Origin: Candidatus Altimarinota bacterium
GTDB taxonomy: Bacteria; Patescibacteriota; Gracilibacteria; BD1-5; UBA6164
Direction of reading: 5' to 3'
Length of the DNA: 64,000 nucleotides
NCBI GenBank assembly: GCA_037444775.1
Contig: JBBILU010000006.1
Span: forward strand, 8,899 to 72,898
Positions 2,862 through 59,808 of the stretch are shown here, piece after piece (positions within the stretch are counted from its first letter, which is position 1; each line of letters begins with the position of its first letter). Both the position numbers and the translations under genes were made by a program. Below the pieces are notes generated by a model. The model was not told where the DNA came from. It saw only the letters and a program-made list of their open reading frames with translations, and did not search any database.

Positions 2862-4820
<1,959 letters not shown>

Positions 4821-7038: not shown

Positions 7039-8004
7039 ATGAAAAAAATCCCTCTTACTATTATAACTTGATTTTTGGGTTCAGGAAAAACTACTTTAAT
7101 AAATAGAATTTTAAAGGAAAACAAGGATTTAAAAATTGCTTTAATTGTAAATGAATTTTGAGATGTTTCTCTTGAAAGTCAATTTATTCAAAGTACAAAT
7201 GAAGAAATTGTTGAAATGTCTAATTGATGTATGTGTTGTGTTGTTAGAAAAGATATTATTGAAACTGTTGAAAATTTATTAGAAAAAAGACCAGATACAG
7301 ATTATATAATTGTTGAAGCAAGTTGACTTTCTGATCCTACTCCAATTGCTGAAACTTTTGCAATGAATTTGACAGATAAAATTAGACTTGATGCAGTTTT
7401 GTGTGTTGTTGATTCTCTTAACATTGAAAAAAACTTCCAAAATTACGAAATAGCAAGTAAACAAATTCTTTATAGTGATATGGTTTTAGTCTCAAAAACT
7501 AATTTTATTTCATCTGAAAAATATCAAGAAATTAAATTTTTTATTAAAAAATTTAATCCATTTATGAGAATTCTTCCTATAAATGAAAGTTTGGATTTGA
7601 AAATGATTCTTGATACAAATAAATTTGATTATTCTAAAGTTGAAGAATTAGAAAAAAAAGAAAAACATCATTGTCATGATGAACATTGTGATCACGAACA
7701 TCATCACCATCACGAAGAAATTGATGAAGTTTTTGTGAAAACTACAAAACCTTTGAATATGGAAAAATTCGCACTTTTTATAAAAAATTTGCCAGAAAAT
7801 ATTATAAGATGAAAAGGATTTATTTATCCAAATTGAGAAGATTATAAATGAAAAAAAATGCTTTTTCAATATGTTTGAGTTAGAATAGATACGGAATTTT
7901 CTGATTGGGATTCTAGTGAAACAAAACAAACTGCAATTGTTTTTATTTGAAAATGATTTGATAAAAAAGATATAGAAAAGAAAATTTTAGATTGTGAAAG
8001 TTAA
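7039..8004 (+). CDS. COG0523-family GTPase metallochaperone (CobW/YjiA/ZigA-like)
   Basis: GFLGSGKTTL P-loop, GCMCC metal motif, EASGLSDP, His-rich HHCHDEHCDHEHHHHH linker, CobW C-terminal domain. 321 aa. Confidence 0.85.
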
Positions 8005-8005
8005 A

Positions 8006-8043
8006 CCTCACCCCCTAGCCCCCTCTCCTTTAGGGGAGGGGGG
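8006..8043. repeat. Family A palindromic element, intergenic
   Basis: cctcaccccctagccccctctcctttaggggagggggg, two nt after the stop of the COG0523 gene. Confidence 0.8.
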
Positions 8044-8071
8044 AAATATATAAATTAAAATTTATTATTTT

Positions 8072-28537: not shown

Positions 28538-28873
28538 ATCTAAAATATGCTTCTATATATGAAAAAGCTGGAGTATATGTACTACTCCTGTTCATGTTCT
28601 TTGAACTGGAATATTGTCATTTGTTAACAAAACTCAAAGTTTATGTCATTTTGTAATAACATTTATTTCATCTGCTTGTGTTTTTTCTAATAGGCTACTT
28701 CTCTCTTCTAAGGAAAGATTGAGTGAAGTATTATTTGGAGTATTCATTGCAACTTCTCCCTCAACAAAAGACAATAACTCGTATCTTGTTAAATCTTTAT
28801 TTACTGTGTAAGTATAATTTTGTTTATCAACTGGATCAACTAAATCTCAAATCACTCAGATCTTTTTTCACAT
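28535..28873 (-). CDS. Hypothetical protein with a pilin-like C-terminal segment, possibly a 5'-truncated remnant
   Basis: 112 aa from the first in-frame ATG. ...DLVDPVDKQNYTYTVNKDLTRYELLSFVEGE resembles the globular part of type IV pilin-like proteins, but no N-terminal hydrophobic helix is present. The frame stays open upstream through the 80-bp repeat. Confidence 0.3.
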
Positions 28874-28952
28874 TTCTATCGTCCCGTTTCAAATCCGACC
28901 AGTTTTATTAGATTCAAAACTTGGACTTAAAAACTCATAAAATTGTTCTAAA
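28873..28952. repeat. 80-bp direct repeat, copy A
   Basis: 77/80 identical to 54070-54149 in the same orientation. Confidence 0.9.
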
Positions 28953-28998
28953 TAATTATAGGAAATGAGTTTAGAGCATCATAAGCTCCAAAATATTT

Positions 28999-29087
28999 TG
29001 GCGGAAAGGAAGGGATTTGAACCCTCGGTGCATTGCTACACACACGATTTCCAATCGTGCTCCTTAAACCACTCGAGACACCTTTCC
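28999..29087 (-). tRNA. tRNA-Ser(GGA)
   Basis: GGAAAGG/CCTTTCC acceptor, anticodon arm CACGA-TTGGAAA-TCGTG, long variable arm, canonical GGTTCAAATCC T arm, G73, encoded CCA. Confidence 0.9.
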
Positions 29088-37078: not shown

Positions 37079-38842
37079 TTAAATCTCTCTAACCATATAT
37101 TCTCACTGCAAAATATATCATCTTTTTTCATAATATTGCCTAACTCAAACTCAAGAAATAACAGCTATTTTATTGAATCAAGCATTTTTAGCTATTTCTT
37201 CAGCTTTTGCAATAAGTTTTTTTCAAAAACCTATATGTTGACCAAAAGTTGAACCTTTTTCATTTATAGAAAGTTGGTCTCAAAAAGTATGAATTTCTCT
37301 AATCAAAGCTGCTCATTCTAACTCTGGAAAAATTTTTCCCTCACCCCCTAGCCCCCTCTCCTTTGGAGTAGAGGGGGAAATAGTATTCTGCGCCTTCTCC
37401 TCCAAAGGAGAAGGCTGGGATGAGGTGTCACTCGGCAATCTCAACCTTAACAAACTAAAAATAGTTCTATCAATTGGATCTTCAAAAGTCAAGAAAAATT
37501 CTTTTCAACCACTAGCTTCATATTCAAAAATATTTAAAACAGCATCACGAGGATTATTTTTTCAATCTTTGATTTCCCTATGACGAATATCAACAAGTTT
37601 TATTCATTCAGATTTCAACTTATCTTCAACAATTTGTCTAAGATTTGCCAAATGTGAACCTTCAAGAATTTCACTTGCTGGAATATCTCTATAAGTTCTG
37701 TTTATTCTAACATATTCAGGAATCATTGTTTCAAGTTTGCAAGTCAAATTTATTAATGTTTCATCATCATAAGCCTTAAATCATCAAGTTTTCCAAATTT
37801 CTGTTAATTCAGAATTATTTGTAACCATCATTGGATAAATTTTTAATTCATCAGGTCTGAAATCTGGATTTTCAAAAACTTCTTTCATAGATTTAATATC
37901 TAGTTCTGGATTAGAACCAAGCAAGTTTGGCATCATATGAGCAACAACTTTGAATCAAGCATTTTTCAACATTTTTGTTGCTTTAATACTTTCAGCATTT
38001 CAATGTCACCTTTTATTTAACTCATTTATTTCATCAATTGTAGTTTGATAACCAATTTCTACACGAGTTACTCAAAATCTTCTTAAATCTTTTATTTCTT
38101 CTTCATTAACCCAATCTGGACGAGTTTCAATTGCTATTCAAATAATTCTACATCTTGTAGTTTCATTTATTTTTTTTGCTTCTTCTAGAGAAGAACTCTC
38201 TTTCATTTTATAAGTTTCTTTTATTTTAAAACTTGCAAATTTATCATTTGAAAAATCTGTTTTTTCAATAAACTTACTCATTTCATCATAAGTATTAAAT
38301 GCATCATAAATTCATTTTATAAAACTTTCTTTATAGGATTTTGGATAAAAACTCCAAGTTCAACCAATAATTCTAACATCATTTTTTTCTATTTTGTGCC
38401 CTGTAATTTCCAAAGCTCTAAGTCTATTATGAATTTGCATTATCGGATCGAATTTATTTAATTCTGCTCTTTGTACTGCTGGTTCATTTGGAATATAACT
38501 TTTTGGTAATCCCTCAAAAGTTGGACAATAAACACATTTTCAAGGACAAGGAAAACTTTTTGTCAAAAGAGAAATCACAGTAACTCAAGACAAACTTCTA
38601 ACTCCTCTTTTTCTAAGAACTTTTGTCAAAACTAAATCCTCTTCTATTTCTCAATTATTTATCAAAAAATTATATCTTTCTATTAATTCTATACTAGAAA
38701 AAGGTTTTACTATTTTGTATTCTCCATAAATCTTGTTTTTTAGCTTATGAAAAACATCTTTAGTAAAAACTTTAGTATTAGATTTTATTTCATCATATGC
38801 ACTAAAAATTATTTTATCAATTATTTCATTTTTATTTATCAT
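37079..38842 (-). CDS. elp3: Elp3-like radical SAM / GNAT acetyltransferase
   Basis: CPGKCVYCP radical SAM cluster, IIGGTWSFY, VEIGYQTT, C-terminal GNAT (FGQHIGFGKKLIAKAEEIAK). 587 aa. A double palindromic element sits in frame before FPELEGAALIREIHTFG. Confidence 0.8.
37338..37427. repeat. Composite (two inverted units) family A element inside elp3
   Basis: ccctcaccccctagccccctctcctttggagtagaggggg-N13-cgccttctcctccaaaggagaaggctgggatgaggtg. Translated (minus strand) [31 protein letters not shown]. Confidence 0.9.
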
Positions 38843-49037: not shown

Positions 49038-49958
49038 TTATTTCATAAATTTTCTATGAGTTTCTTTTAATTTAGGATTTGTAACATGGGTATAAACTTG
49101 TGTTGTATTTATGCTTGAATGTCATAACAATTCTTGAATTTCTCTAAGTCAAGCTCAGTTATTTAGCAAAGTTGTTGCAAAAGAATGTCTCAAAGTATGA
49201 GCTGAAATATCTTTCAAAATAAAAGCTTTTTTTGCATATTCTTTTACCATTGTTGTAATAAAAAATCTTGTTAACCTCATTTTTTCATCTTCTAAAATAT
49301 CTATAGAATCTGTTTTTGTATTATGTCTTATGAAAAGTGGTTTCAAATGATCTTTTCTTTTTTCTAAATATTTTTTTATGGAATCTGCTGAATCATCTGT
49401 CAAATAAACAACTCTAACTTTTTTTCATTTTCATCTAACTGCAAATTCTTTTCTAGTCAAATTTACATCGGAAACATTTAAAGCTGTTAATTCTGAAATT
49501 CTAAGTCAAGTAGAATAAATCATTTTAATAATAGCTAAATCTCTTGTTCAAATCAAAGTATTTTTATTTGGAGCATCAAATAATCTTTCTAACTCTTCCC
49601 TATTTAAAAATTCTACCATTCTAGCATCTTGTTTCATTAAATCTATTGAAGTTGGAGAAATACTTTTTATTCACTTTTTTTCAAGAAATTTCAAAAAAGC
49701 TCTTAATGTAATCATATAAGCATTAGCTGTTTTAACAGATATTCTCTTCCCTTTTTTATACAAAAAAGTTCTAAATCATTCTGCTAAATCCAAAGTCATA
49801 TTCTGCATTTCAAACTTAAATCTATCTATATTTTTTTCTTCCAAAAATTCTCAAAACTTATTCAAATGTCTATCATATTGCTCTGAAGTTTTTGGAGATT
49901 TATTCTTAATTACTTCAAGATAATTCAAGAAATCAAGATGTGCTTGGCTAAAATTCAT
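49038..49958 (-). CDS. Tyrosine recombinase, XerC/XerD-like
   Basis: SAM-like N-domain; catalytic residues in GLRISEL, AHTLRHSFAT, LLGHSSINTTQVYTH. 306 aa. Confidence 0.85.
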
Positions 49959-51302: not shown

Positions 51303-53168
51303 ATGACCGAAATATTAAAAATATTAAAAACTTACAAATTAAATAAGAAATTATTTTTCTATTTAATTTTTTTTACAATAAGTTCTCAACTTCTTATAGT
51401 TAGTATACCTATCGTAACATCCAAAATAACAGGAGTTTTAGAATTCAAATGAGATTTAAAAGATTTTTATTTTTGGTGCTATATTCTGATTATTGTTTCA
51501 ATCTTTTTGTGTATTTCATTTTTTATGGAGGTTTTTTTTAGAGAATATCTTTGGCTAAAAACTTGGACAGAATTGATGAAAAGTTCAAGAAAAAAACTTT
51601 TTGAAAAAGATTATAAAACAATTATAGAAGTTTGAACTTGAAAACTTATTTCAAGACTAGCAAGATGAATTGATGCTCAAACTGATATTTTTACTGCTCT
51701 TGTAAGCATATTTTTCAATGCTGGACTTAGAATTATTTTACTTGTAATTGTATTTTTCTTTACTTCACCACTTTTTGCTTGGATAATAATTTTTTGAGCA
51801 ATTTTTCTTTGAATAGTTGTTTATTTTACAAGAAAATATGCAGAAAAATATCAAAAAGAAGAAGTTGAACTTTGGGAAAAAAGTTCAAGAGTTGAAGCAA
51901 AATTAATTATGAATAATCTTGATTTAAGAATTCTTTGAAAAGAAAAAAAAGAATTAGAGCTTTCAGATGAAGTTCTCTCAAAACTCCCAAATGTAGCAAG
52001 AAAAGCTGATATTCCAAGAAATGTTCAATGAAATTTACTTGAACTTATCACAAGAATAATAGTATTTTTTATTTACTTTGTTTTTGGTTTACAAATTTTA
52101 AAATGAGAACAAAGTATTGCAAATATGACTTTGATAATTATGAGTCTTTGGACTCTTTATCATCCTCTAAACAAAGCTATGGACGAGATTTGAAGAATTA
52201 GTCGTGTTTGGGATAAATATATGAAATTACAAAAGTTTTTGGATACTGAAATTGAAATAAAAAATTGAGCTAAAGTTTTTGAATACAAAAAATGAGAAAT
52301 TAAATTTGAAAATGTAGATTTTTTTTATAATAATGATAGAAAAATTTTTGAAAATTTAAATTTAAAAATAAAATCATGACAAAAAAATGCTTTTGTTTGA
52401 CATAGTTGATGAGGAAAATCAACAATTACAAAATTAATTTTGAGACTTTATGAAATAAGTTCTTGAAAACTTTTGGTTGATTGACAAAATATTAAAGACA
52501 TAAAAATAGAAACTTTTTATAATAACATTGCTTATTTATCTCAAGAACCAGCTGTTTTTGACTGAACTATTAGAGAGAATATGGAGTATGCTTTGAGTCA
52601 AAATTCCCAGTCTTCTCCTTTAGACCTCACCCCAACCCTCTCCTTTGGAGGAGAGGGAGAAAGAGAGAAATCTGTTATAATCCCATTTGTTGAAATTGAC
52701 AAGAATGTAGAGGTGTTTGGTAAAAACATCTCAAAAGATGATGAACAAGAAAAACAAATTTGGGAAGCTCTTAAAAAAGCCAAAATGGATGATTTGGTAA
52801 AATCTCTTCCAAAATGACTTGATACAGAAATTTGAGAAAAGTGAATAAAACTTAGTTGATGAGAAAAACAAAGACTTGCAATTGCAAGAGTTTTTCTAAA
52901 AAATCCTAAAATAATTATTCTTGATGAACCAACTTCTGCACTTGATAGTATAAGTGAAAATCATATTACAGAAAGTTTAAATGAACTTTTGAAATGAAAA
53001 ACTAGTATAATAATAGCTCACAGATTGCAGACAGTTATTAATTCTGATAAAATTTTTGTTATAGAAAATTGAAAAATAGAATCAGAATGAACTCATTTAG
53101 AGCTTTTGAAAAAATCAAAAATATATAAAACTTTGGTTGATTTGCAACATTGATGTTTAGTTGAGTAG
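51303..53168 (+). CDS. ABC exporter, fused TMD-NBD (MsbA-like)
   Basis: Six-helix TMD, then [39 protein letters not shown]. An upstream in-frame TTG at 51246 is an alternative start. Carries an in-frame insertion of about 45 aa, including a palindromic element, between the Q-loop region and the signature motif. Confidence 0.9.
52611..52667. repeat. Family A palindromic element inside the ABC exporter gene
   Basis: tcttctcctttagacctcaccccaaccctctcctttggaggagagggagaaagagag, translated [19 protein letters not shown]. Confidence 0.85.
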
Positions 53169-54069: not shown

Positions 54070-54149
54070 TTTCTATTGTCCCGTTTCAAATCCGACCAGT
54101 TTTGTTAGATTCAAAACTTGGACTTAAAAACTCATAAAATTGCTCTAAA
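54070..54149. repeat. 80-bp direct repeat, copy B
   Basis: 77/80 identical to 28873-28952. Lies between the ileS terminator and the start of the gene at 53990. Confidence 0.9.
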
Positions 54150-54152
54150 AAA

Positions 54153-54188
54153 TAAAAAAAATCTAGCAAATTTTTGCTAGATTTTTTT
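54153..54188 (-). terminator. CTAG-hairpin terminator after ileS
   Basis: aaaaaaatctagcaaa / tttgctagattttttt. Confidence 0.7.
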
Positions 54189-54194
54189 ATTTTT

Positions 54195-57100
54195 TTATTT
54201 TTTTAATTTTATTTCTACTTTCATCTCATCAAACTCAATTTCTTTTTCTAAATCAAAACTTTCTAAATTACCTTCAATTTTTGAAAGAGTTTCTGTTTCT
54301 ATATAATTTTCAAAGTTTTTTATAGCTTGTGCTATCCTTTCTCCAATTGGAAAAGAGTTAGAGAGAGGGCTTAATTGTATTTTTATTCTATCATCAACTT
54401 GATAATCAGCTTCTTTTCTAGCTTCTTGAATTGCTCTTACTAAATCTCTTGCTATTCATTCTTGCTGTAATTCTTCTGTTAAACTTGAATCCATAGCAAT
54501 TACCATTCAAAATCCAGCCTCAATTTCATATTGAGAATCTCCAGCCTCAAAAGCAAGTTCATATTCTCAAGATTCAAGAATGAAACTTGTGTTATTTTTT
54601 TTCTCCAAAGGAGAAGCTAGGTGAGGTATTCTAACTCTTCCTTCTTCCAATTCCTCAAAATTTCCTGCTTTTGCTTCTTGCAAAATATATTTTACATCTT
54701 GTCCAAACTTTGGACCAATAAGCCTTGCATTTGGTTTACAAATTTTTTTTGCAATAGAATCAGCATTTACTATAATTACTTCTTTTACATTTAATTCTTC
54801 TTTCAAAATATTTTTATAATATTCTTCCAGATTTTCTCAAATAGTAATTGATTTCAAAGGTTGTCTTACTTTAAGCTTGTGATTTACTCTCCAAGCCAAA
54901 CCAAGATTTATAAATTTTTGAGTTTTTGCCATTTGTTCACTCAAATCTTTATTAACAAAAGCACTCACATATTCAGGAAAAATATCTAGATGAACTGATT
55001 TTTTTCCAGTTAAATTTTTGTAAATATGATCTGCTAAGAATGGCATAAATGGAGCAATAATTTTTGAAACTTCCACCAAAACTGTATGAAGAGTATTGTA
55101 AGCTTGTATTTTGTCTCCATCATTTTCTGATTTCCAAAATCTTTTTCTAGATCTTCTAATATACCAATTTGTCAAATTATCCATAAATGCAGGAATATTT
55201 TTGGTTGCCTCATTGATTCTATAGCCATCTAATCACATTGAAACTTCTCAAATCAAAGTATGAAGTTCTCATAAAATCCATTTATCTAGTGGATTTTGAA
55301 GTGGAATTTTTGGGAAAGTGATAATTTGAGCATTTTTTACAGTTGGCATTTCAAGATGTGCATAGTCTAAACTCATTCACAAATACTTTTTGAAAAAAGG
55401 TCTAGCACTTCCAGCATGTCCAACAAACAAAATATTTTTGTCTCTATTTTTTAACAGAATTTCTTCAAAAGCTGTTTCAACTCTTGTTTGAAATTGTTCA
55501 TAATTTTCTATACTAGAATTTTTAAAAATTTTTCTCAAAGCTACTTTATCCTTCAAATCTACTCAATAAATTTCTGCTATTTCTTTATGACTCTTCCCTT
55601 CAAATTCAGCATAATTTTGTTCTTTAATTCCATCATTTATAAGAATTTCTCAAGTATATCATGAATTTTCAGCAATAATTTTTGCAGTTTCTAAAGCTCT
55701 ATCTAAAGGAGAACTTACTATCAAATCAAATGTAATTCCAGCAATTTTTGCATTTTGTCAAGATTTTTTTGCTTGTTCTTTTCATTTTTCAGTTAATTTA
55801 GGATTATCCATAGCTCCAGAAATTCCAGCAGACTCAACTGTCCACCTAGCATTACTTTCACTTTCAGCATGTCTTACAAAAAATATTTGTCATTTTGGAA
55901 CCTCAAAGTTATCAATATTTGCATAAGTAGTGAAAAAACTATAGGTATTCCACAAAGGCAAAATTACTTTTTTCACCACTTCTTCAACTCCAATTTCACT
56001 AAATCTCAAATCTTGAGCCTCAACAACTGGAGAATTCATTAAATAAAATCTCATTGCATCAGCACCATATTTATCAAAAATTATTTCAGGAGCTGGATAA
56101 TTTTGTAAACTTTTACTCATTTTTTTCCCATCTTCAGCCAAAACAATTCAGTTCACAATAGTGTTAAGTGTAGCAGGAGAATCAAAAAGTGCAGTAGAAA
56201 GAATAATCAAAGTATAAAACCAACCTCTGGTTTGGTCTAATCATTCAGCAATAAAATCTGCTGGGAAGCCCTCACCCCTTGCCCCTCTCCTTTGGAGTAG
56301 AGGGGAGTTTTTTTGCCCGTGCTCCTTCTTCTCCAAAGGAGAAGGTTGGGATGAGGGAAAAGCAAAAGGATAGTGTTTACTTGCATAAGGCATTGCTCAA
56401 CTTTCAAACCAACAATCAAGAACTTCAGGGATTCTTTTTAATTTCTCTCAAGTTTTTGGAGATTTCACAAAAATTTCATCAACAAAATGTTTATGCAAAT
56501 CAACTTCTTTTCAAGTTGCAGTGTAAAAATATTTATTGCCTCTTTTTTCAATCTGCCCAAAATCTTTATTTGCTTCATATAATTCTTCTACACTTCCAAT
56601 ACAAACTTCCTCAGTTTTGTCTTCATTTTGCCAAACTGGAATAGCTGAACCCCAATATCTATTTCTTGAAATATTCCAATCTCTTGCTTGTTCTAGCCAT
56701 TTCCCAAATCTTCATAATTTAATATTTTCTGGTGTCCAATTTGTTTTCAAATTATTTGCTACCATTTTATCTCTAATTTTTTCAACTGCCACATACCAAG
56801 CAGAAATAGCTCTATAAATTAATGGAGTACCACATCTCCAACAATGTGGATAAGAATGATCTATAGTCCCAATATGAAAAGAAAGCTTTTTCTCTTTTAG
56901 TTCAGAAACCACAAAATCATTGAAATCAAAAACAAATTCTCCATTATGTTCTAATAAATTATAAGTTTTTCCAGAATCATCAATATGAGCTACAAAACCT
57001 AAATCTTTTTCTTTTCAAATAATATTATCATCTTCTCAATAAGCTGGAGCAATATGAACAATTCCAGTTCAGCTTTCTGTTGTTACATGATGACCAATTA

Positions 57101-58082
57101 CTACAGAAAAAGAATTTTTTCAAAGTGCAATTCCATTTCATAAATCTGAATTCATTTCAGCCAATTGCAAATAAAAATCATCAAACAATGGCTCATAAGC
57201 AATTCCTACTAAACAAGTTCCAGGATATTCTCTCACAAGAGTATAATCCTCTTCTTTTTTGTAATAATTATTTACTCTTTCTTTAGCCAAAATATATGTG
57301 TCTCCAGTATTTTTATCAAGAATTTCCACATAAATTATATTTTCACCAACTGCAAGTCAAAGATTTGCATAAAGTGTCCAAGGAGTAGTGGTCCAAGCAA
57401 GAATATATTTATTTGGAGAATTTTTTATCTTAAATTTTATAGTAACAGCTTTAGATTGTTTGTCTTTGTATCCTTGATTTACTTCGAAGTTTGAAAGTGG
57501 AGTCGTACATCTTGGACAATAAGGAACAATTCTATTTCCTTCATAAATAAGCCCTTTATCATAAATACTTTTAAAAACCCACCAAACTGATTCCATAAAA
57601 TTGGTATCCATAGTTTTGTAATCATCTTCCATATCAACCCATCTTCACATTCTATTTACTGTTTTTTTCCATTCATCCACATAACCAAAAACATTTGCTC
57701 TACAAGTTTCATTGAAATCATGAACTCAAATTTTATTTTCTATATCATCTTTTCAGTTTATTTTCAACTTTTTTTCAACAATATTTTCAATAGGCAATCC
57801 ATGACAATCCCAACCAAATTTTCTGGTAACTTTTTTTCATTTCATAGTTTGGTATCTTGGAATTACATCTTTGATAGTTCCAGCTAAAATATGTCAATAA
57901 TGAGGAGTTCCAGTTGCAAATGGAGGACCATCATAAAAATTAAACTCATTTTCATTGCTTCTTGAATCCACAGATTCTTCAAAAATTTTTTCTTCTTGCC
58001 AAAACTTTAGCATTTCTTCTTCTAATTTTGGAAAGCTTTGTTTTGGGTTTACTTCTGGGAAGTTCTTAGTTATTTTTGTCAT
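54195..58082 (-). CDS. ileS: Isoleucyl-tRNA synthetase with internal histidine-phosphatase-like domain and three palindromic insertions
   Basis: 1295 codons. All track fragments at 57894, 57357, 57138, 56712, 55890, 54837 and 54567 share one frame. I translated 56712-55182 codon by codon and found no TAA/TAG. Motifs: [12 protein letters not shown] (HIGH), [47 protein letters not shown]. Confidence 0.95.
54601..54626. repeat. Family A element inside the ileS C-terminal region
   Basis: ttctccaaaggagaagctaggtgagg, translated (minus strand) PHLASPLEK. Confidence 0.7.
55305..55892 (-). other. Histidine phosphatase (PGAM-like) domain inserted in ileS, about residues 731-925
   Basis: [12 protein letters not shown] (RHG-type motif), [40 protein letters not shown]. 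Located between ...[20 protein letters not shown] and ...LDKWILGELHTL... of the IleRS anticodon-binding domain. Confidence 0.7.
56269..56357. repeat. Composite family A element inside the ileS catalytic core
   Basis: ccctcaccccttgcccctctcctttggagtagaggggag-N13-gctccttcttctccaaaggagaaggttgggatgaggg. Translated (minus strand) [30 protein letters not shown], between HYPFAF and FPADFIAEG. Confidence 0.9.
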
Positions 58083-58124
58083 AGGTTTTTGGTTAGATTT
58101 TAAATTTGACTTTTAATAAGTTTT
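58036..58124. repeat. ileS 5' segment (first 47 coding nt plus about 42 nt of upstream leader), copy 1
   Basis: Nearly identical to 59144-59232. The coding part also matches 58619-58665. Confidence 0.9.
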
Positions 58125-58158
58125 CTAATATAATATATTTGTTCCTAGAGAACTTAAT

Positions 58159-58191
58159 GGCTCCTAGCAGCTCACCTCCTGAAAAGGAGGT
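58159..58191. repeat. Family A-like palindromic element, intergenic upstream of ileS
   Basis: ggctcctagcagctcacctcctgaaaaggaggt. Confidence 0.6.
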
Positions 58192-58209
58192 ATAAAAATG
58201 AAAGTGCAT

Positions 58210-58665
58210 TTATTCAATAAGTGCATTTATTTTTTGTTTAATTTCTTTTAGTTTACACTCCTCAATTCATCAAATATGAGATAACAATCTTTTTGAACTA
58301 TATAATTTTATTTGAGAAAGAATTAAAAAATTATTTTGTCATTTTATATTTCAAATATCATAATAAAAAAATCAATGTTTTACTTTTGTAGTACTAGGAA
58401 TTCACAAAAACATATCTTTATTAAATTTTTTAAGAATCAAAATTGGTCTACTAAAATCTTCATTTTTTCCATCTTGTTCAAATCAAATATTTATTCACAT
58501 AGAAATAAACCAAACTTGTCATTCTCTAAAGTAAGGAATTTTGGATTCACTTTTAGTATGAATTTTCTTTTTTTCATTATTCCATAAATCAAACATTTCT
58601 TCCTCTCATTTTGAAAAACTTTGTTTTGGGTTTACTTCTGGGAAGTTTTTAGTGTTTTTTGTCAT
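58210..58665 (-). CDS. MazF/PemK-family toxin with an IleRS-derived N-terminus
   Basis: ...REGQVWFISMGINIGFEQDGKNEDFSRPILILKKFNKDMFLGIPSTTKVKH...FLILSQIKLYSSKRLL fits the PemK/MazF pattern. The first 16 aa, [16 protein letters not shown], match IleRS, and weaker similarity continues to about residue 33. 151 aa. Confidence 0.7.
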
Positions 58666-58679
58666 GGTATTTTTGGTTA
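58619..58679. repeat. ileS 5' segment, copy 2
   Basis: ctttgttttgggtttacttctgggaagtttttagtgttttttgtcat is shared with copies 1 and 3. Confidence 0.85.
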
Positions 58680-59060
58680 ATATTGTATGTTAAAACTTAT
58701 AAATATACTTTCAAGGATATTATGCAATTCTTCTTTTTTTATATTTCCTTTAGCAACTCATATAGCGATATCTTCCATTTTTACAAAAAAAGAAGGTATG
58801 AAAATATTATTAATTTCAAGAAAAAGCCCTAAGCTTCAAATAGCAGTCCTTTTATTCCCATCATTAAAACAATGGAAATTTATAAGTCAGAAGAATAAAT
58901 GAGTTGCTTTTTCAACAATGTTTTTATAATAATCATCATTTTGTATATGTTGAAGTATTGAGTCTATTTGTTGCTTATCTTTTATTCCTGAAAGTCATCA
59001 AAATATTTCTAAAATATTATTATGCAGATTAATAACATCATGTACATCTAAATAATTCAT
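58677..59060 (-). CDS. doc: Doc (death-on-curing) Fic-fold toxin
   Basis: ...GGLSGIKDKQQIDSIL...ATHLFFGLINFHCFNDGNKRTA... carries the Fic/Doc core HxFxDGNKR. 127 aa. Confidence 0.8.
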
Positions 59061-59061
59061 T

Positions 59062-59190
59062 TTATTTTTGTGTTAGTCTTTTAAATGCTTCATAATTTCA
59101 TTGATCAGAAATTTGCTCTTCTAAAAAATGTTTTGTATTAATACTTTGTTTTGGGTTTACTTCTGGGAAGTTTTTAGTGTTTTTTGTCAT
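59062..59190 (-). CDS. Small chimeric ORF in the antitoxin position upstream of doc
   Basis: 42 aa. The first 16 aa are identical to the MazF-like N-terminus and come from the ileS 5' copy. Stop is 1 nt before the doc ATG. No recognisable Phd fold. Confidence 0.4.
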
Positions 59191-59232
59191 AGGTTTTTGG
59201 TTAGATTTTAAATTTGACTTTTAATAAGTTTT
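59144..59232. repeat. ileS 5' segment, copy 3
   Basis: The leader part cataggtttttggttagattttaaatttgacttttaataagtttt is identical to copy 1. Confidence 0.9.
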
Positions 59233-59372
59233 TTCGTATAAGAGGACAAAAAGTTTCTAAAAATATTTTTCTGTATATAATTGTTCCAAAACTTCTCTAT
59301 AATCAAAAGCCATTTTCAAATATTTTGTTTCTTCATAGCTAAAGTAATTCTAATCTTCATCTAAAAGTTTTT

Positions 59373-59591
59373 TTATCATAAATATTCATTAATTAACTTT
59401 AAAGCTTCATTTTTATAATCATCTTCTTTTAATTCACTATACAAAGTTGCTTCTTGTAAAAATTTATCATATTCATCAAGTTGTTTTTGAGAATAATTCC
59501 CAGAGCTAAAAAGTTCTTCCAAAAGAGTATCAAGAGAAGCAAAATCATCTTTTTCAAGAGCTTCTTTTACTTGCAAAATCATTGTTTTCAT
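59373..59591 (-). CDS. Hypothetical small acidic protein
   Basis: 72 aa: MKTMILQVKEALEKDDFASLDTLLEELF.... First ORF after the T-box terminator. The N-terminal extension of track ORF 59376..59666 runs through that terminator and is rejected. Confidence 0.45.
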
Positions 59592-59603
59592 AATTCTTTT
59601 TAA

Positions 59604-59808
59604 AAAAATAAAAAGCACAAAAAAATATTTTTGTGCTTTCGGTCCAATTTTATTGGAAGGTACCACCTAAAGCTTTGGAACAATTTTTTTGTTCTCTACT
59701 TAATTTAATTTTTTTAACGGAGATTTTAAACTTCGGGAGATTCTACTAAAACTAAAAGTTCGTTCTTTCTCCAGCTCGTAGTTGATAGCTACTCAAATGC
59801 TTTTGATT
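59604..59808 (-). promoter_or_regulatory. T-box riboswitch leader, probably Ile-specific
   Basis: On the minus strand: F-box CCGUUA (59720-59715). T-box core UUAGGUGGUACC (59671-59660), with UGGU in a bulge between helices GCUUU/AAAGC and UCCAAU/AUUGGA (antiterminator). A competing terminator AAAGCACAAAAA/UUUUUGUGCUUU plus U-run follows. Candidate specifier AUC at 59741-59739. Confidence 0.8.

Follow-up and report, generated by a model that had tools for sequence, protein, structure and literature searches.

How did the first codons of an essential aminoacyl-tRNA synthetase gene come to stand at the head of two genes of a toxin locus? The question is raised by a 64,000-nt stretch of DNA from Candidatus Altimarinota bacterium (assembly GCA_037444775.1, contig JBBILU010000006.1, positions 8,899 to 72,898), which is referred to as the window (WIN). 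On its minus strand, the 5' end of ileS, the gene of isoleucyl-tRNA synthetase (IleRS), is present at ileS itself, at the start of a MazF/PemK-like gene and at the start of orf42, a 42-aa open reading frame (ORF) directly upstream of the toxin gene doc. The answer favoured here, with a probability of roughly 60% and on the basis of sequence comparison, is that a cassette array was built up at an insertion hotspot between the small gene up72 and ileS of a code-25 genome, by insertions that duplicated the ileS start region.

The three copies are located at 58036-58082 (copy A, ileS), 58619-58665 (copy B, the MazF-like ORF) and 59144-59190 (copy C, orf42). The 47-mer ATGACAAAAAACACTAAAAACTTCCCAGAAGTAAACCCAAAACAAAG is matched by copies B and C without mismatch and by copy A with three mismatches; 100 dinucleotide shuffles gave no match, with 0 expected by chance. 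A sequence-only reading of this DNA had proposed a self-comparison; a repeat search of the window gave a single family of three copies, spaced 583 and 525 nt apart. Over coding nt +1 to +47, copy A agrees with B and with C at 44 of 47 positions each and B with C at 47 of 47, the identity of B and C reaching +48 (coding nt 1-48). Copy A differs from the other two in codon 4 (ATA instead of AAC) and codon 6 (AAG instead of AAA). From +49 to +72, A and B agree at 21 of 24 positions and C is unrelated; from +73 to +100, the agreement of A and B drops to 16/28. By this segment comparison, copy A extends over 72 nt relative to copy B (58011-58082). Upstream of the start codon, the leaders of A and C are identical (42/42 from -42 to -1) and B has only the proximal TAACCAAAAA. 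Beyond the 42-nt leader, no significant extension of the homology between A and C was detected (44/500 shuffles reached the score). The triplication is thus real and not a product of chance. The sequence-only reading had reported it with correct coordinates and ORF assignments, and it was also right about the identity of the two extra copies over 47 nt, their roughly three differences from ileS and the 42-nt leader that the third copy has in common with ileS.

Read 5' to 3' on the minus strand, the locus consists of the gene of a CAP-domain protein, up72, a 140-nt spacer, leader C with 48 nt of ileS and the rest of orf42, doc, TAACCAAAAATACC with 72 nt of ileS and the MazF-like gene, a 127-nt 3' region ending in leader A, and ileS. 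This order depends on the genetic code applied. Only 3 ORFs of at least 100 aa were obtained in the window (24% GC) under table 11, compared with 52 under tables 4/25. In ileS, 31 in-frame TGA codons fall on conserved glycines (e.g. PHY[G]H, FES[G]AMPY and AE[G]LDQTRGW). TGA therefore encodes Gly (code 25, Gracilibacteria-like), and all ORFs were read accordingly. The named homologues of the window's proteins belong to Candidatus Gracilibacteria. Two database proteins, P0001 and P0087, are the window's own genes translated with Trp at TGA. With code 25, ileS (54195..58082, minus strand) is an intact essential gene of 1295 aa with the Pfam domains tRNA-synt_1 (1.6e-138), Anticodon_1 and DUF5915, displaced downstream by the cassettes.

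Related loci are labelled with L-numbers. A code-independent DNA pattern for the IleRS N-terminus returned 85 metagenomic loci, mostly true ileS starts, and the N-terminal sequence is common to dozens of IleRS starts. The left border of the hotspot is formed by up72 (59373..59591, minus strand), a small backbone gene with blastp matches in 15 metagenomic ileS loci and in L002. The order CAP-domain gene, up72, ileS is conserved in code-25 relatives. In five loci (L112, L118, L120, L158 and L161) the site is empty, and only 14-27 nt separate the stop codon of up72 and the start codon of ileS; eleven others are filled, with a separation of 578-4362 nt, and the window has 1290 nt. The genes at filled sites are diverse, small and almost all co-oriented with ileS (MazF-like, DUF559-like, NYN-like, GNAT-like, NUDIX, HAD, MazG, His_Phos_1 and small membrane proteins). 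As both empty and filled states of up72|ileS exist, the site is regarded as a cassette-insertion hotspot; a search for empty sites in related genomes was the comparison that the sequence-only reading had suggested.

Duplicated gene starts were also detected next to cassettes of relatives. In L001, a MazF-like gene at ileS (60% identical over the MazF core) carries the stub MTFKPVNQKQSFPELEKDM, and the next gene starts with MTFKQVNP (score 54, shuffle maximum 30). L102 has a divergent MazF-like gene starting with MINFEKVNQ directly upstream of an ileS starting with MTNFEKVNP (score 52, shuffle maximum 41). In L130 and L104, which use the standard code and come from two samples, 131 nt of leader and ileS 5' end (71 nt of ileS) are duplicated (score 191, shuffle maximum 36). 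The two copies enclose cargo on the other strand, namely genes for a ParE toxin, a RelB/Phd antitoxin and a pentapeptide-repeat protein, and a 28-aa stub ORF is left behind. At thyX in L089, a Doc mini-ORF and the downstream thyX both start with MSTGTF and have an identical leader (score 61, shuffle maximum 32). In L002, L114 and L090/91, the sequence duplicated around cassettes is the leader only or a terminator; L111, L127 and L160 have short repeated leaders. All ileS-linked repeats include ATG..GTAAAYC, with end-points that vary (+27, +48, +57, +71 and +72); the other targets have no sequence in common with it. The junctions differ among WIN, L001 and L102, and the divergence of the MazF-like proteins is decoupled from that of IleRS: in L002 and L127, IleRS is 81% identical and MazF 40%. 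The MazF-like protein of L086, linked to murA, is 67% identical to that of the window, and linkage to ileS does not make MazF genes more similar among themselves than to those found at recG or murA. Given the differing junctions and the decoupled divergence, repeated events are indicated and not one inherited fusion.

The MazF-like ORF (58210..58665, minus strand) encodes 151 aa. Its codons 1-24 (58594-58665) are derived from ileS, and the native protein begins with Phe25. This is concluded from its homologues, which mostly have 127-131 aa, begin with M..FDxWNxxKKxI and have no stub: in the alignment, the Met with which they start falls on Met24 of the chimeric ORF. IleRS likewise has a Met at position 24 (..EEEM). 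The sequence-only reading had described the toxin as an IleRS N-terminal stub fused to a PemK domain, which agrees with the Pfam match and the homologue alignment; it had also traced the similarity to IleRS to about residue 33, and the stretch beyond residue 24 proved to be the native MazF N-terminus. The match to PF02452 (PemK_toxin, aa 49-149) is marginal with 24.0 bits at a cut-off of 23.1. The L102 homologue reaches 30.5 bits, and most database homologues carry this domain. A structure was modelled with AlphaFold2 on P0001, in which 10 TGA codons are translated as Trp and not as Gly, and gave a predicted local distance difference test (pLDDT) of 84 and a predicted template modelling (TM) score of 0.71. 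In this model, residues 1-18 are coil and a helix of residues 19-37 spans the fusion junction. The top 50 PDB matches in Foldseek were all toxins of the MazF family (MazF, YdcE, MoxT and relatives) with a probability of 1.0 and target-normalised TM scores of 0.59-0.77; those to MazF of S. aureus, E. coli and M. tuberculosis were 0.7-0.77. Given the Pfam match, the model and the Foldseek results, the protein has a true MazF fold. In the family alignments, R73-P74 never vary and T92 hardly does (motifs RPxLxL and ..TT). By resemblance of motifs, R73 and T92 may correspond to the catalytic R29 and T52 of E. coli MazF.

No protein antitoxin partner of the MazF-like gene was found in the window, where it lies between doc (upstream) and ileS (downstream), and no recurrent small mazE/pemI-like partner ORF in 59 standard-code loci. 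The latter come from a tblastn scan of a genome collection with the MazF-like alignment, which covers standard-code relatives only since tblastn breaks at TGA. Its neighbours on both sides in code-25 relatives are unrelated genes. The description as toxin-antitoxin genes in the sequence-only reading thus holds for the Doc cassette, in which a mini-ORF precedes doc in five out of five distinct loci, and fails for the solitary MazF-like gene. In one Gracilibacteria protein (P0002, 247 aa), a MazG (nucleotide pyrophosphohydrolase) domain is fused to a MazF-like protein with 70% identity; in the L002 array, MazG has a cassette to itself.

Behind the MazF-like gene lies a 3' module of its own. In a comparison of eight cassettes, its proximal part (58125..58209, minus strand) was found to contain hairpin 1, an 18-mer and a second small stem. 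Hairpin 1 (58174-58191, ACCTCCT/AGGAGGT) is present in 8/8 cassettes with different compensating stem sequences. The 18-mer GAGCTGCTAGGAGCCATT (58156-58173) is nearly invariant in seven cassettes, and reads GAGCTNCTANGAGCCATT across the relatives. The module trails the MazF-like gene in code-25 relatives of the main subfamily whatever the next gene is (ileS, a gene of 262 aa, recG or a murA-like gene), and the divergent MazF-like genes of L102 and L127 have a related variant. No Rfam family matched the hairpin and 18-mer. A conserved peptide encoded in the module or its antisense strand was rejected, as by inspection the frames are interrupted in L083 and L114.

Leader A (58083..58124, minus strand) is a composite of this module and of ileS sequence. 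Its proximal 13-19 nt or so (CTAACCAAAAACCT) are the native translation-initiation region of ileS, a motif kept upstream of ileS in both empty and filled relatives. The distal part of approx. 25-29 nt (AAAACTTATTAAAAGTCAAATTTAAAAT) is the end of the MazF 3' module. In relatives, ileS is preceded only by the short motif TAACC..ACC(A)CT ATG, at empty as well as at filled sites. The 42-nt sequence that had been described as the ileS leader is therefore identical in A and C as claimed, and only about 13-19 nt of it are native to ileS. Leader C (59191..59232, minus strand) includes the distal MazF-module segment. With both native ileS and MazF-module parts, it must have been copied from the junction of the MazF module and ileS. 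The leader of copy B, TAACCAAAAATACC (58666..58679, minus strand), is a variant of the native initiation region, and its first three bases are the stop codon of doc. When 57800-59800 was searched against Rfam with permissive thresholds, no T-box or riboswitch was detected, the only match being at chance level and outside the region. The leader motif AAGTCAAATTT was considered as a genome-wide element and dismissed, since 27 one-mismatch matches at 18.8 expected are no enrichment.

On the plus strand, opposite to ileS and the MazF-like gene, a near-consensus sigma70-type promoter is predicted (58106..58134, TTGACT-17-TATAAT, 11/12), which points into the MazF-like 3' region and has its -35 motif inside leader A. 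The same geometry (10-11/12) is present in six of eight cassettes (WIN, L002, L083, L087, L114 and L102; in L002 at 5975-5947 and 6511-6483), and the sense strand never scored higher. The ATG of the next gene lies 18-22 nt beyond the -35 motif in six loci. Leader C, which includes the antisense -35 motif, likewise provides a promoter-like site by sequence scoring (59214-59242, plus strand, TTGACT-17-TATAAG). By inspection, TTGACT is also present upstream of groES. The antisense promoter could drive an antisense RNA against the MazF-like mRNA.

The second toxin gene, doc (58677..59060, minus strand), encodes a Fic/Doc-family protein of 127 aa. It matches TIGR01550 (DOC_P1) with 1.5e-16 and 60.7 bits (cut-off 38.65) and Pfam Fic (PF02661) with 1.8e-12 and 48.4 bits (cut-off 24). 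The Doc-type active-site motif is H-x-F-x-D-x-N-K-R; here it reads HCFNDGNKR (aa 63-71), and it is kept in L089, L090, L177 and L178. The chimeric mini-partner orf42 (59062..59190, minus strand) stops 1 nt before the ATG of doc. Its codons 1-16 (59143-59190) are derived from ileS and contain its sole Met, and codons 17-42 (INTKHFLEEQISDQGNYEAFKRLTQK) match the conserved C-terminal part of the mini-ORF that precedes doc in relatives, over the last 23-26 residues. Such mini-ORFs of 35-46 aa end 1-3 nt before doc in the window, L089, L090/91, L177 and L178-180. They are conserved only in the C-terminal 22 residues or so (..L..Q/T.xDxxNxxAxKRLTxK and ..YLxxQLxDKxNYDAFKRLTEK). Neither orf42 nor the native mini-ORFs matched Pfam or NCBIfam, and no Phd/YefM domain was detected, for which 35-46 aa are too short. 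A conserved abutting upstream gene, as in the Phd-Doc type, is thus present with doc and can be considered as a putative antitoxin gene. In other code-25 genomes (L177 at 3001-3396, and L178-L180), mini-ORF and Doc cassettes are found directly upstream of thrS with neither stub nor flanking repeat; after ileS, this threonyl-tRNA synthetase gene is the second of its kind to be preceded by a Doc cassette.

Under the favoured explanation, two cargo units would have been inserted: the doc gene with its partner ORF of about 40 aa, and the solitary MazF-fold gene with its own 3' module of hairpin, 18-mer and outward-facing antisense promoter. The insertions would lie within the first 16-24 codons of ileS, because the spacer of the empty site measures only 14-27 nt. 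Each would be bracketed by the duplicated translation-initiation region and first codons of ileS, which would keep ileS intact downstream and place the IleRS start in frame at the head of each cassette's first ORF. All five fusions examined (B and C of the window, L001, L102 and L089) are in frame; the probability by chance is approx. 0.004, or 0.012 if B and L001 go back to one event. In orf42, the L089 mini-ORF and the MazF-like ORF of L102, there is no alternative Met upstream of the conserved part. From the frames and the lack of another Met, the borrowed ATG is most likely the real start, i.e. the cassette ORFs are most likely translated from it. Since then, the copies would have exchanged sequence: A and C have the same leader, B and C the same coding part, and C contains sequence of the MazF module even though its position is upstream of the MazF-like gene. 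The duplications would have arisen by recombination on short homology patches or microhomology with no enzyme encoded by the cassette. Candidate routes are a single crossover that integrates a circular cassette through a patch of 45-130 nt from the target's 5' end, unequal crossing-over between repeats, and template switching. Selection would retain only insertions that leave ileS intact and give the newcomer a start, and the Doc/partner pair might act as an addiction module and thereby counteract loss through deletion between the repeats.

Several observations weigh against this explanation. Neither circular junctions nor donor sites nor a recombinase could be detected. A flanking duplication is missing at L083, L085, L086 and L087 (MazF-like) and at L177 and L178 (Doc), so that it was rejected as a universal hallmark of the cassettes. 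A simple two-step duplication of the target would not account for the MazF-module sequence in copy C and an additional recombination step would be required. Use of the stub start is deduced from frame and Met content, and WIN-B and L001 could have a common ancestry, which would lower the number of independent events. On balance, the sequence-only reading, which had proposed repeated insertion at the ileS 5' end with target duplication and chimeric N-termini on the ileS start, is strengthened by the empty and filled sites and the independent recurrences and amended in three details, namely the leader, the limit at residue 24 and the antitoxin of the MazF-like gene.

The same arrangement could be produced by a site-specific recombinase. 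The ileS 5' end (e.g. GTAAACCCAAAACAA) would then serve as the attachment (att) site of a trans-acting recombinase of the tyrosine or serine type, integrase-less, cis-mobilisable units would have accreted in tandem, and the repeats would represent attL, a hybrid att and attR. Three repeats of the same orientation around two units are indeed the pattern of tandem accretion, and ileS 5' ends were struck repeatedly in different lineages, one standard-code genome included. Moreover, other arrays use the inverted-repeat leader TGTC-N5-GACA..TAAxCTA at cassette boundaries. We nevertheless consider this unlikely. The repeats end at +48 and +72 in the window, at about +27 in L102 and at +71 in L130, and the same cassette families occur at thyX, thrS, recG and murA-like genes with other repeats or none. 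The arrays examined have no recombinase or integrase in or beside them; in the window, the array's neighbours are up72, the CAP-domain protein, a NUDIX protein, an unknown protein and a histidine kinase. A single tyrosine recombinase is encoded in the window; its presence would favour such integration, but it is of the Xer type and located approx. 8 kb away (49038-49958). Code-independent DNA signatures of both cassettes had 0 matches in viral contigs, which speaks against this route, and a phage or plasmid vehicle was rejected.

A vertical history seems a poor fit as well. One ancient MazF-ileS fusion could have been inherited with stubs kept ileS-like by gene conversion and a third copy gained by unequal crossing-over, all with no recent insertions. 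The MazF-like gene lies upstream of ileS in 6/9 code-25 lineages examined, each stub resembles its own resident ileS and not the other stubs, and the mosaic of A, B and C points to exchange between copies. The junctions of WIN/L001 and L102 differ in both partners, however, empty up72|ileS sites exist, and other cargo (ParE/RelB, and Doc at thyX) has the same architecture. Together with the decoupled divergence and the lack of closer kinship among ileS-linked MazF genes, this makes such a history distinctly improbable. There is even less reason to see an adaptive design, in which a common ileS start was selected to couple toxin and antitoxin synthesis to that of IleRS, e.g. under isoleucine or translation stress. 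It would explain why all five fusions are in frame, why the ileS-specific upstream motif TAACC..ACC(A)CT ATG is kept on the stubs and why Doc cassettes also occur just upstream of thrS in relatives. Yet Rfam indicated no known regulatory RNA in the leader, the same cassettes occur without stubs at other loci, stub lengths vary, and L130 has its cargo on the opposite strand and a stub that is a dead 28-aa ORF. Finally, assemblers can be misled by repeats into mis-joins or chimeric contigs, and the DNA probably comes from a metagenome-assembled genome. Such an artefact is hardly credible here: the repeats measure only 47-89 nt and have unique flanks, the three ORFs are intact and in frame, NCBI has the proteins of the window on two contigs, and analogous structures are present in independent assemblies (L001, L102 and L089) and two samples (L130 and L104).

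The 140-nt spacer between up72 and leader C (59233..59372, minus strand) has no significant similarity to the ileS 5' end (13/500 shuffles reached the score) or to the MazF module (44/500) and may be what is left of earlier cargo. The idea that the interval from up72 to copy C holds a fourth, decayed piece of ileS was dropped (score 27, reached by 13/500 shuffles). In L114, a second, diverged up72-like ORF of 73 aa is located between the MazF-like cassette and ileS (738-989 and 1636-1857); part of this backbone gene may also have been duplicated by insertion. The inverted-repeat leader mentioned above is found approx. 30 nt upstream of cassette ORFs in L111, L114, L127, L160, L115, L135 and L148. 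In arrays upstream of ileS it often forms same-strand pairs 511-582 nt apart (L114: 1001-1022 and 1578-1599; L127: 7820-7841 and 8402-8423). It is absent from the window.

The IleRS of the window contains further insertions. A His_Phos_1 domain of about 193 aa (Pfam 9.7e-32) is situated in frame at aa 732-929, between the catalytic and the anticodon-binding domains. It is not present in the IleRS of L159, a relative with 1055 aa and 70% identity, and the L002 IleRS (1383 aa) carries an insert different from that of the window. A free-standing His_Phos_1 gene is one cassette of the L002 array, and the RecG proteins of L083 and L087 have a DUF559 insert. A GC-rich palindromic repeat element (CCCTCTCCTTTGGAG.AGAGGG..) has at least four copies in the window (56283-56356, ~7997-8050, 37330-37425 and 52636-52665), one of them in frame inside ileS (aa 574-590); a second short 'SPLEKK' piece follows further down IleRS (aa 1153-1164). 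In addition, an 84-nt direct repeat with 95% identity occurs at 28873-28956 and 54070-54153, 25 kb apart. Both are situated just behind the 3' end of a gene on the minus strand, namely tRNA-Ser (28999-29087) and ileS (stop at 54195). The repeat is neither a tRNA nor an Rfam family, and the whole window has only two tRNAs.

If the favoured explanation is true, the locus shows how very small, tightly packed genomes with little intergenic DNA gain selfish or defence-type genes beside essential genes without killing the cell, the newcomer being expressed from the duplicated start region of the displaced gene. It would provide a concrete example of toxin and antitoxin proteins with N-termini replaced by a piece of an aminoacyl-tRNA synthetase. 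The hotspot with its known empty and filled states is traceable in metagenomes. Such loci are unreadable without code 25, and short IleRS-like ORFs annotated there would be insertion scars. The MazF-fold family is widespread and solitary and has a conserved antisense promoter; control by RNA may be possible. A much wider generalisation is put forward as a speculation that we rather doubt: that code-25 Gracilibacteria and some neighbouring lineages of the candidate phyla radiation acquire genes, as small promoter-less cassettes, in an integrase-less, integron-like manner at the starts of ileS, thrS, thyX, recG and murA-like genes, duplicating leader and first codons, so that co-oriented arrays borrow host start codons, and that the MazF-like cassette is a new toxin module controlled by a cis-antisense RNA from the 3' promoter and not by a protein antitoxin.

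No description of this architecture was found in literature searches, and it was compared with known systems. Integrative elements that target a gene end and bring a replacement copy are phage 21 and e14 at icd, and tandem accretion is known from the arrays of integrative and conjugative elements and cis-mobilisable elements at fda of Streptococcus thermophilus. As in these, direct repeats of the target gene end flank the insert, the target stays intact and three repeats surround two units. The units described here differ in their small size (0.5-0.6 kb), the lack of an integrase in or near them, the use of the 5' instead of the 3' end, the variable repeat ends and the in-frame fusion to the host start. 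Integron gene cassettes include the toxin-antitoxin cassettes of chromosomal integrons. They resemble the arrays of small, mostly single-gene, co-oriented and apparently promoter-less cassettes at one hotspot with a cargo rich in toxin-antitoxin, NUDIX and GNAT genes, and in both cases cassette expression relies on signals at the insertion point. Unlike in integrons, there is no intI, and the unit repeated at the boundaries is taken from the displaced host gene, as its leader or 5' coding end, and changes with the target. No attC-type sites were recognised, no attC model having been applied.

In a Campbell-type single crossover of circular DNA, the homology patch is directly duplicated on either side of the insert, and repeated rounds as well as excision via the repeats can follow. 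The direct duplication of a patch on both sides is the same here; the patches are short (45-131 nt) and no circles were observed. Compared with MazEF, the MazF-like cassette has the MazF fold in common, its family having an invariant Arg-Pro and a conserved Thr in MazF-like motifs, and is distinguished by the missing mazE-like partner, an extra N-terminal helix, the conserved 3' hairpin, 18-mer and antisense promoter, and the marginal Pfam score. The partner of Doc differs from that of Phd-Doc systems in having 35-46 aa and no Phd/YefM domain, with only the C-terminal 22 residues or so conserved and, in the window, 16 N-terminal residues derived from IleRS. Otherwise, the Doc cassette is very similar to the phage P1 type, with a match to the Doc-subfamily hidden Markov model above the cut-off, the HxFxDxNKR motif and a small upstream ORF abutting doc.

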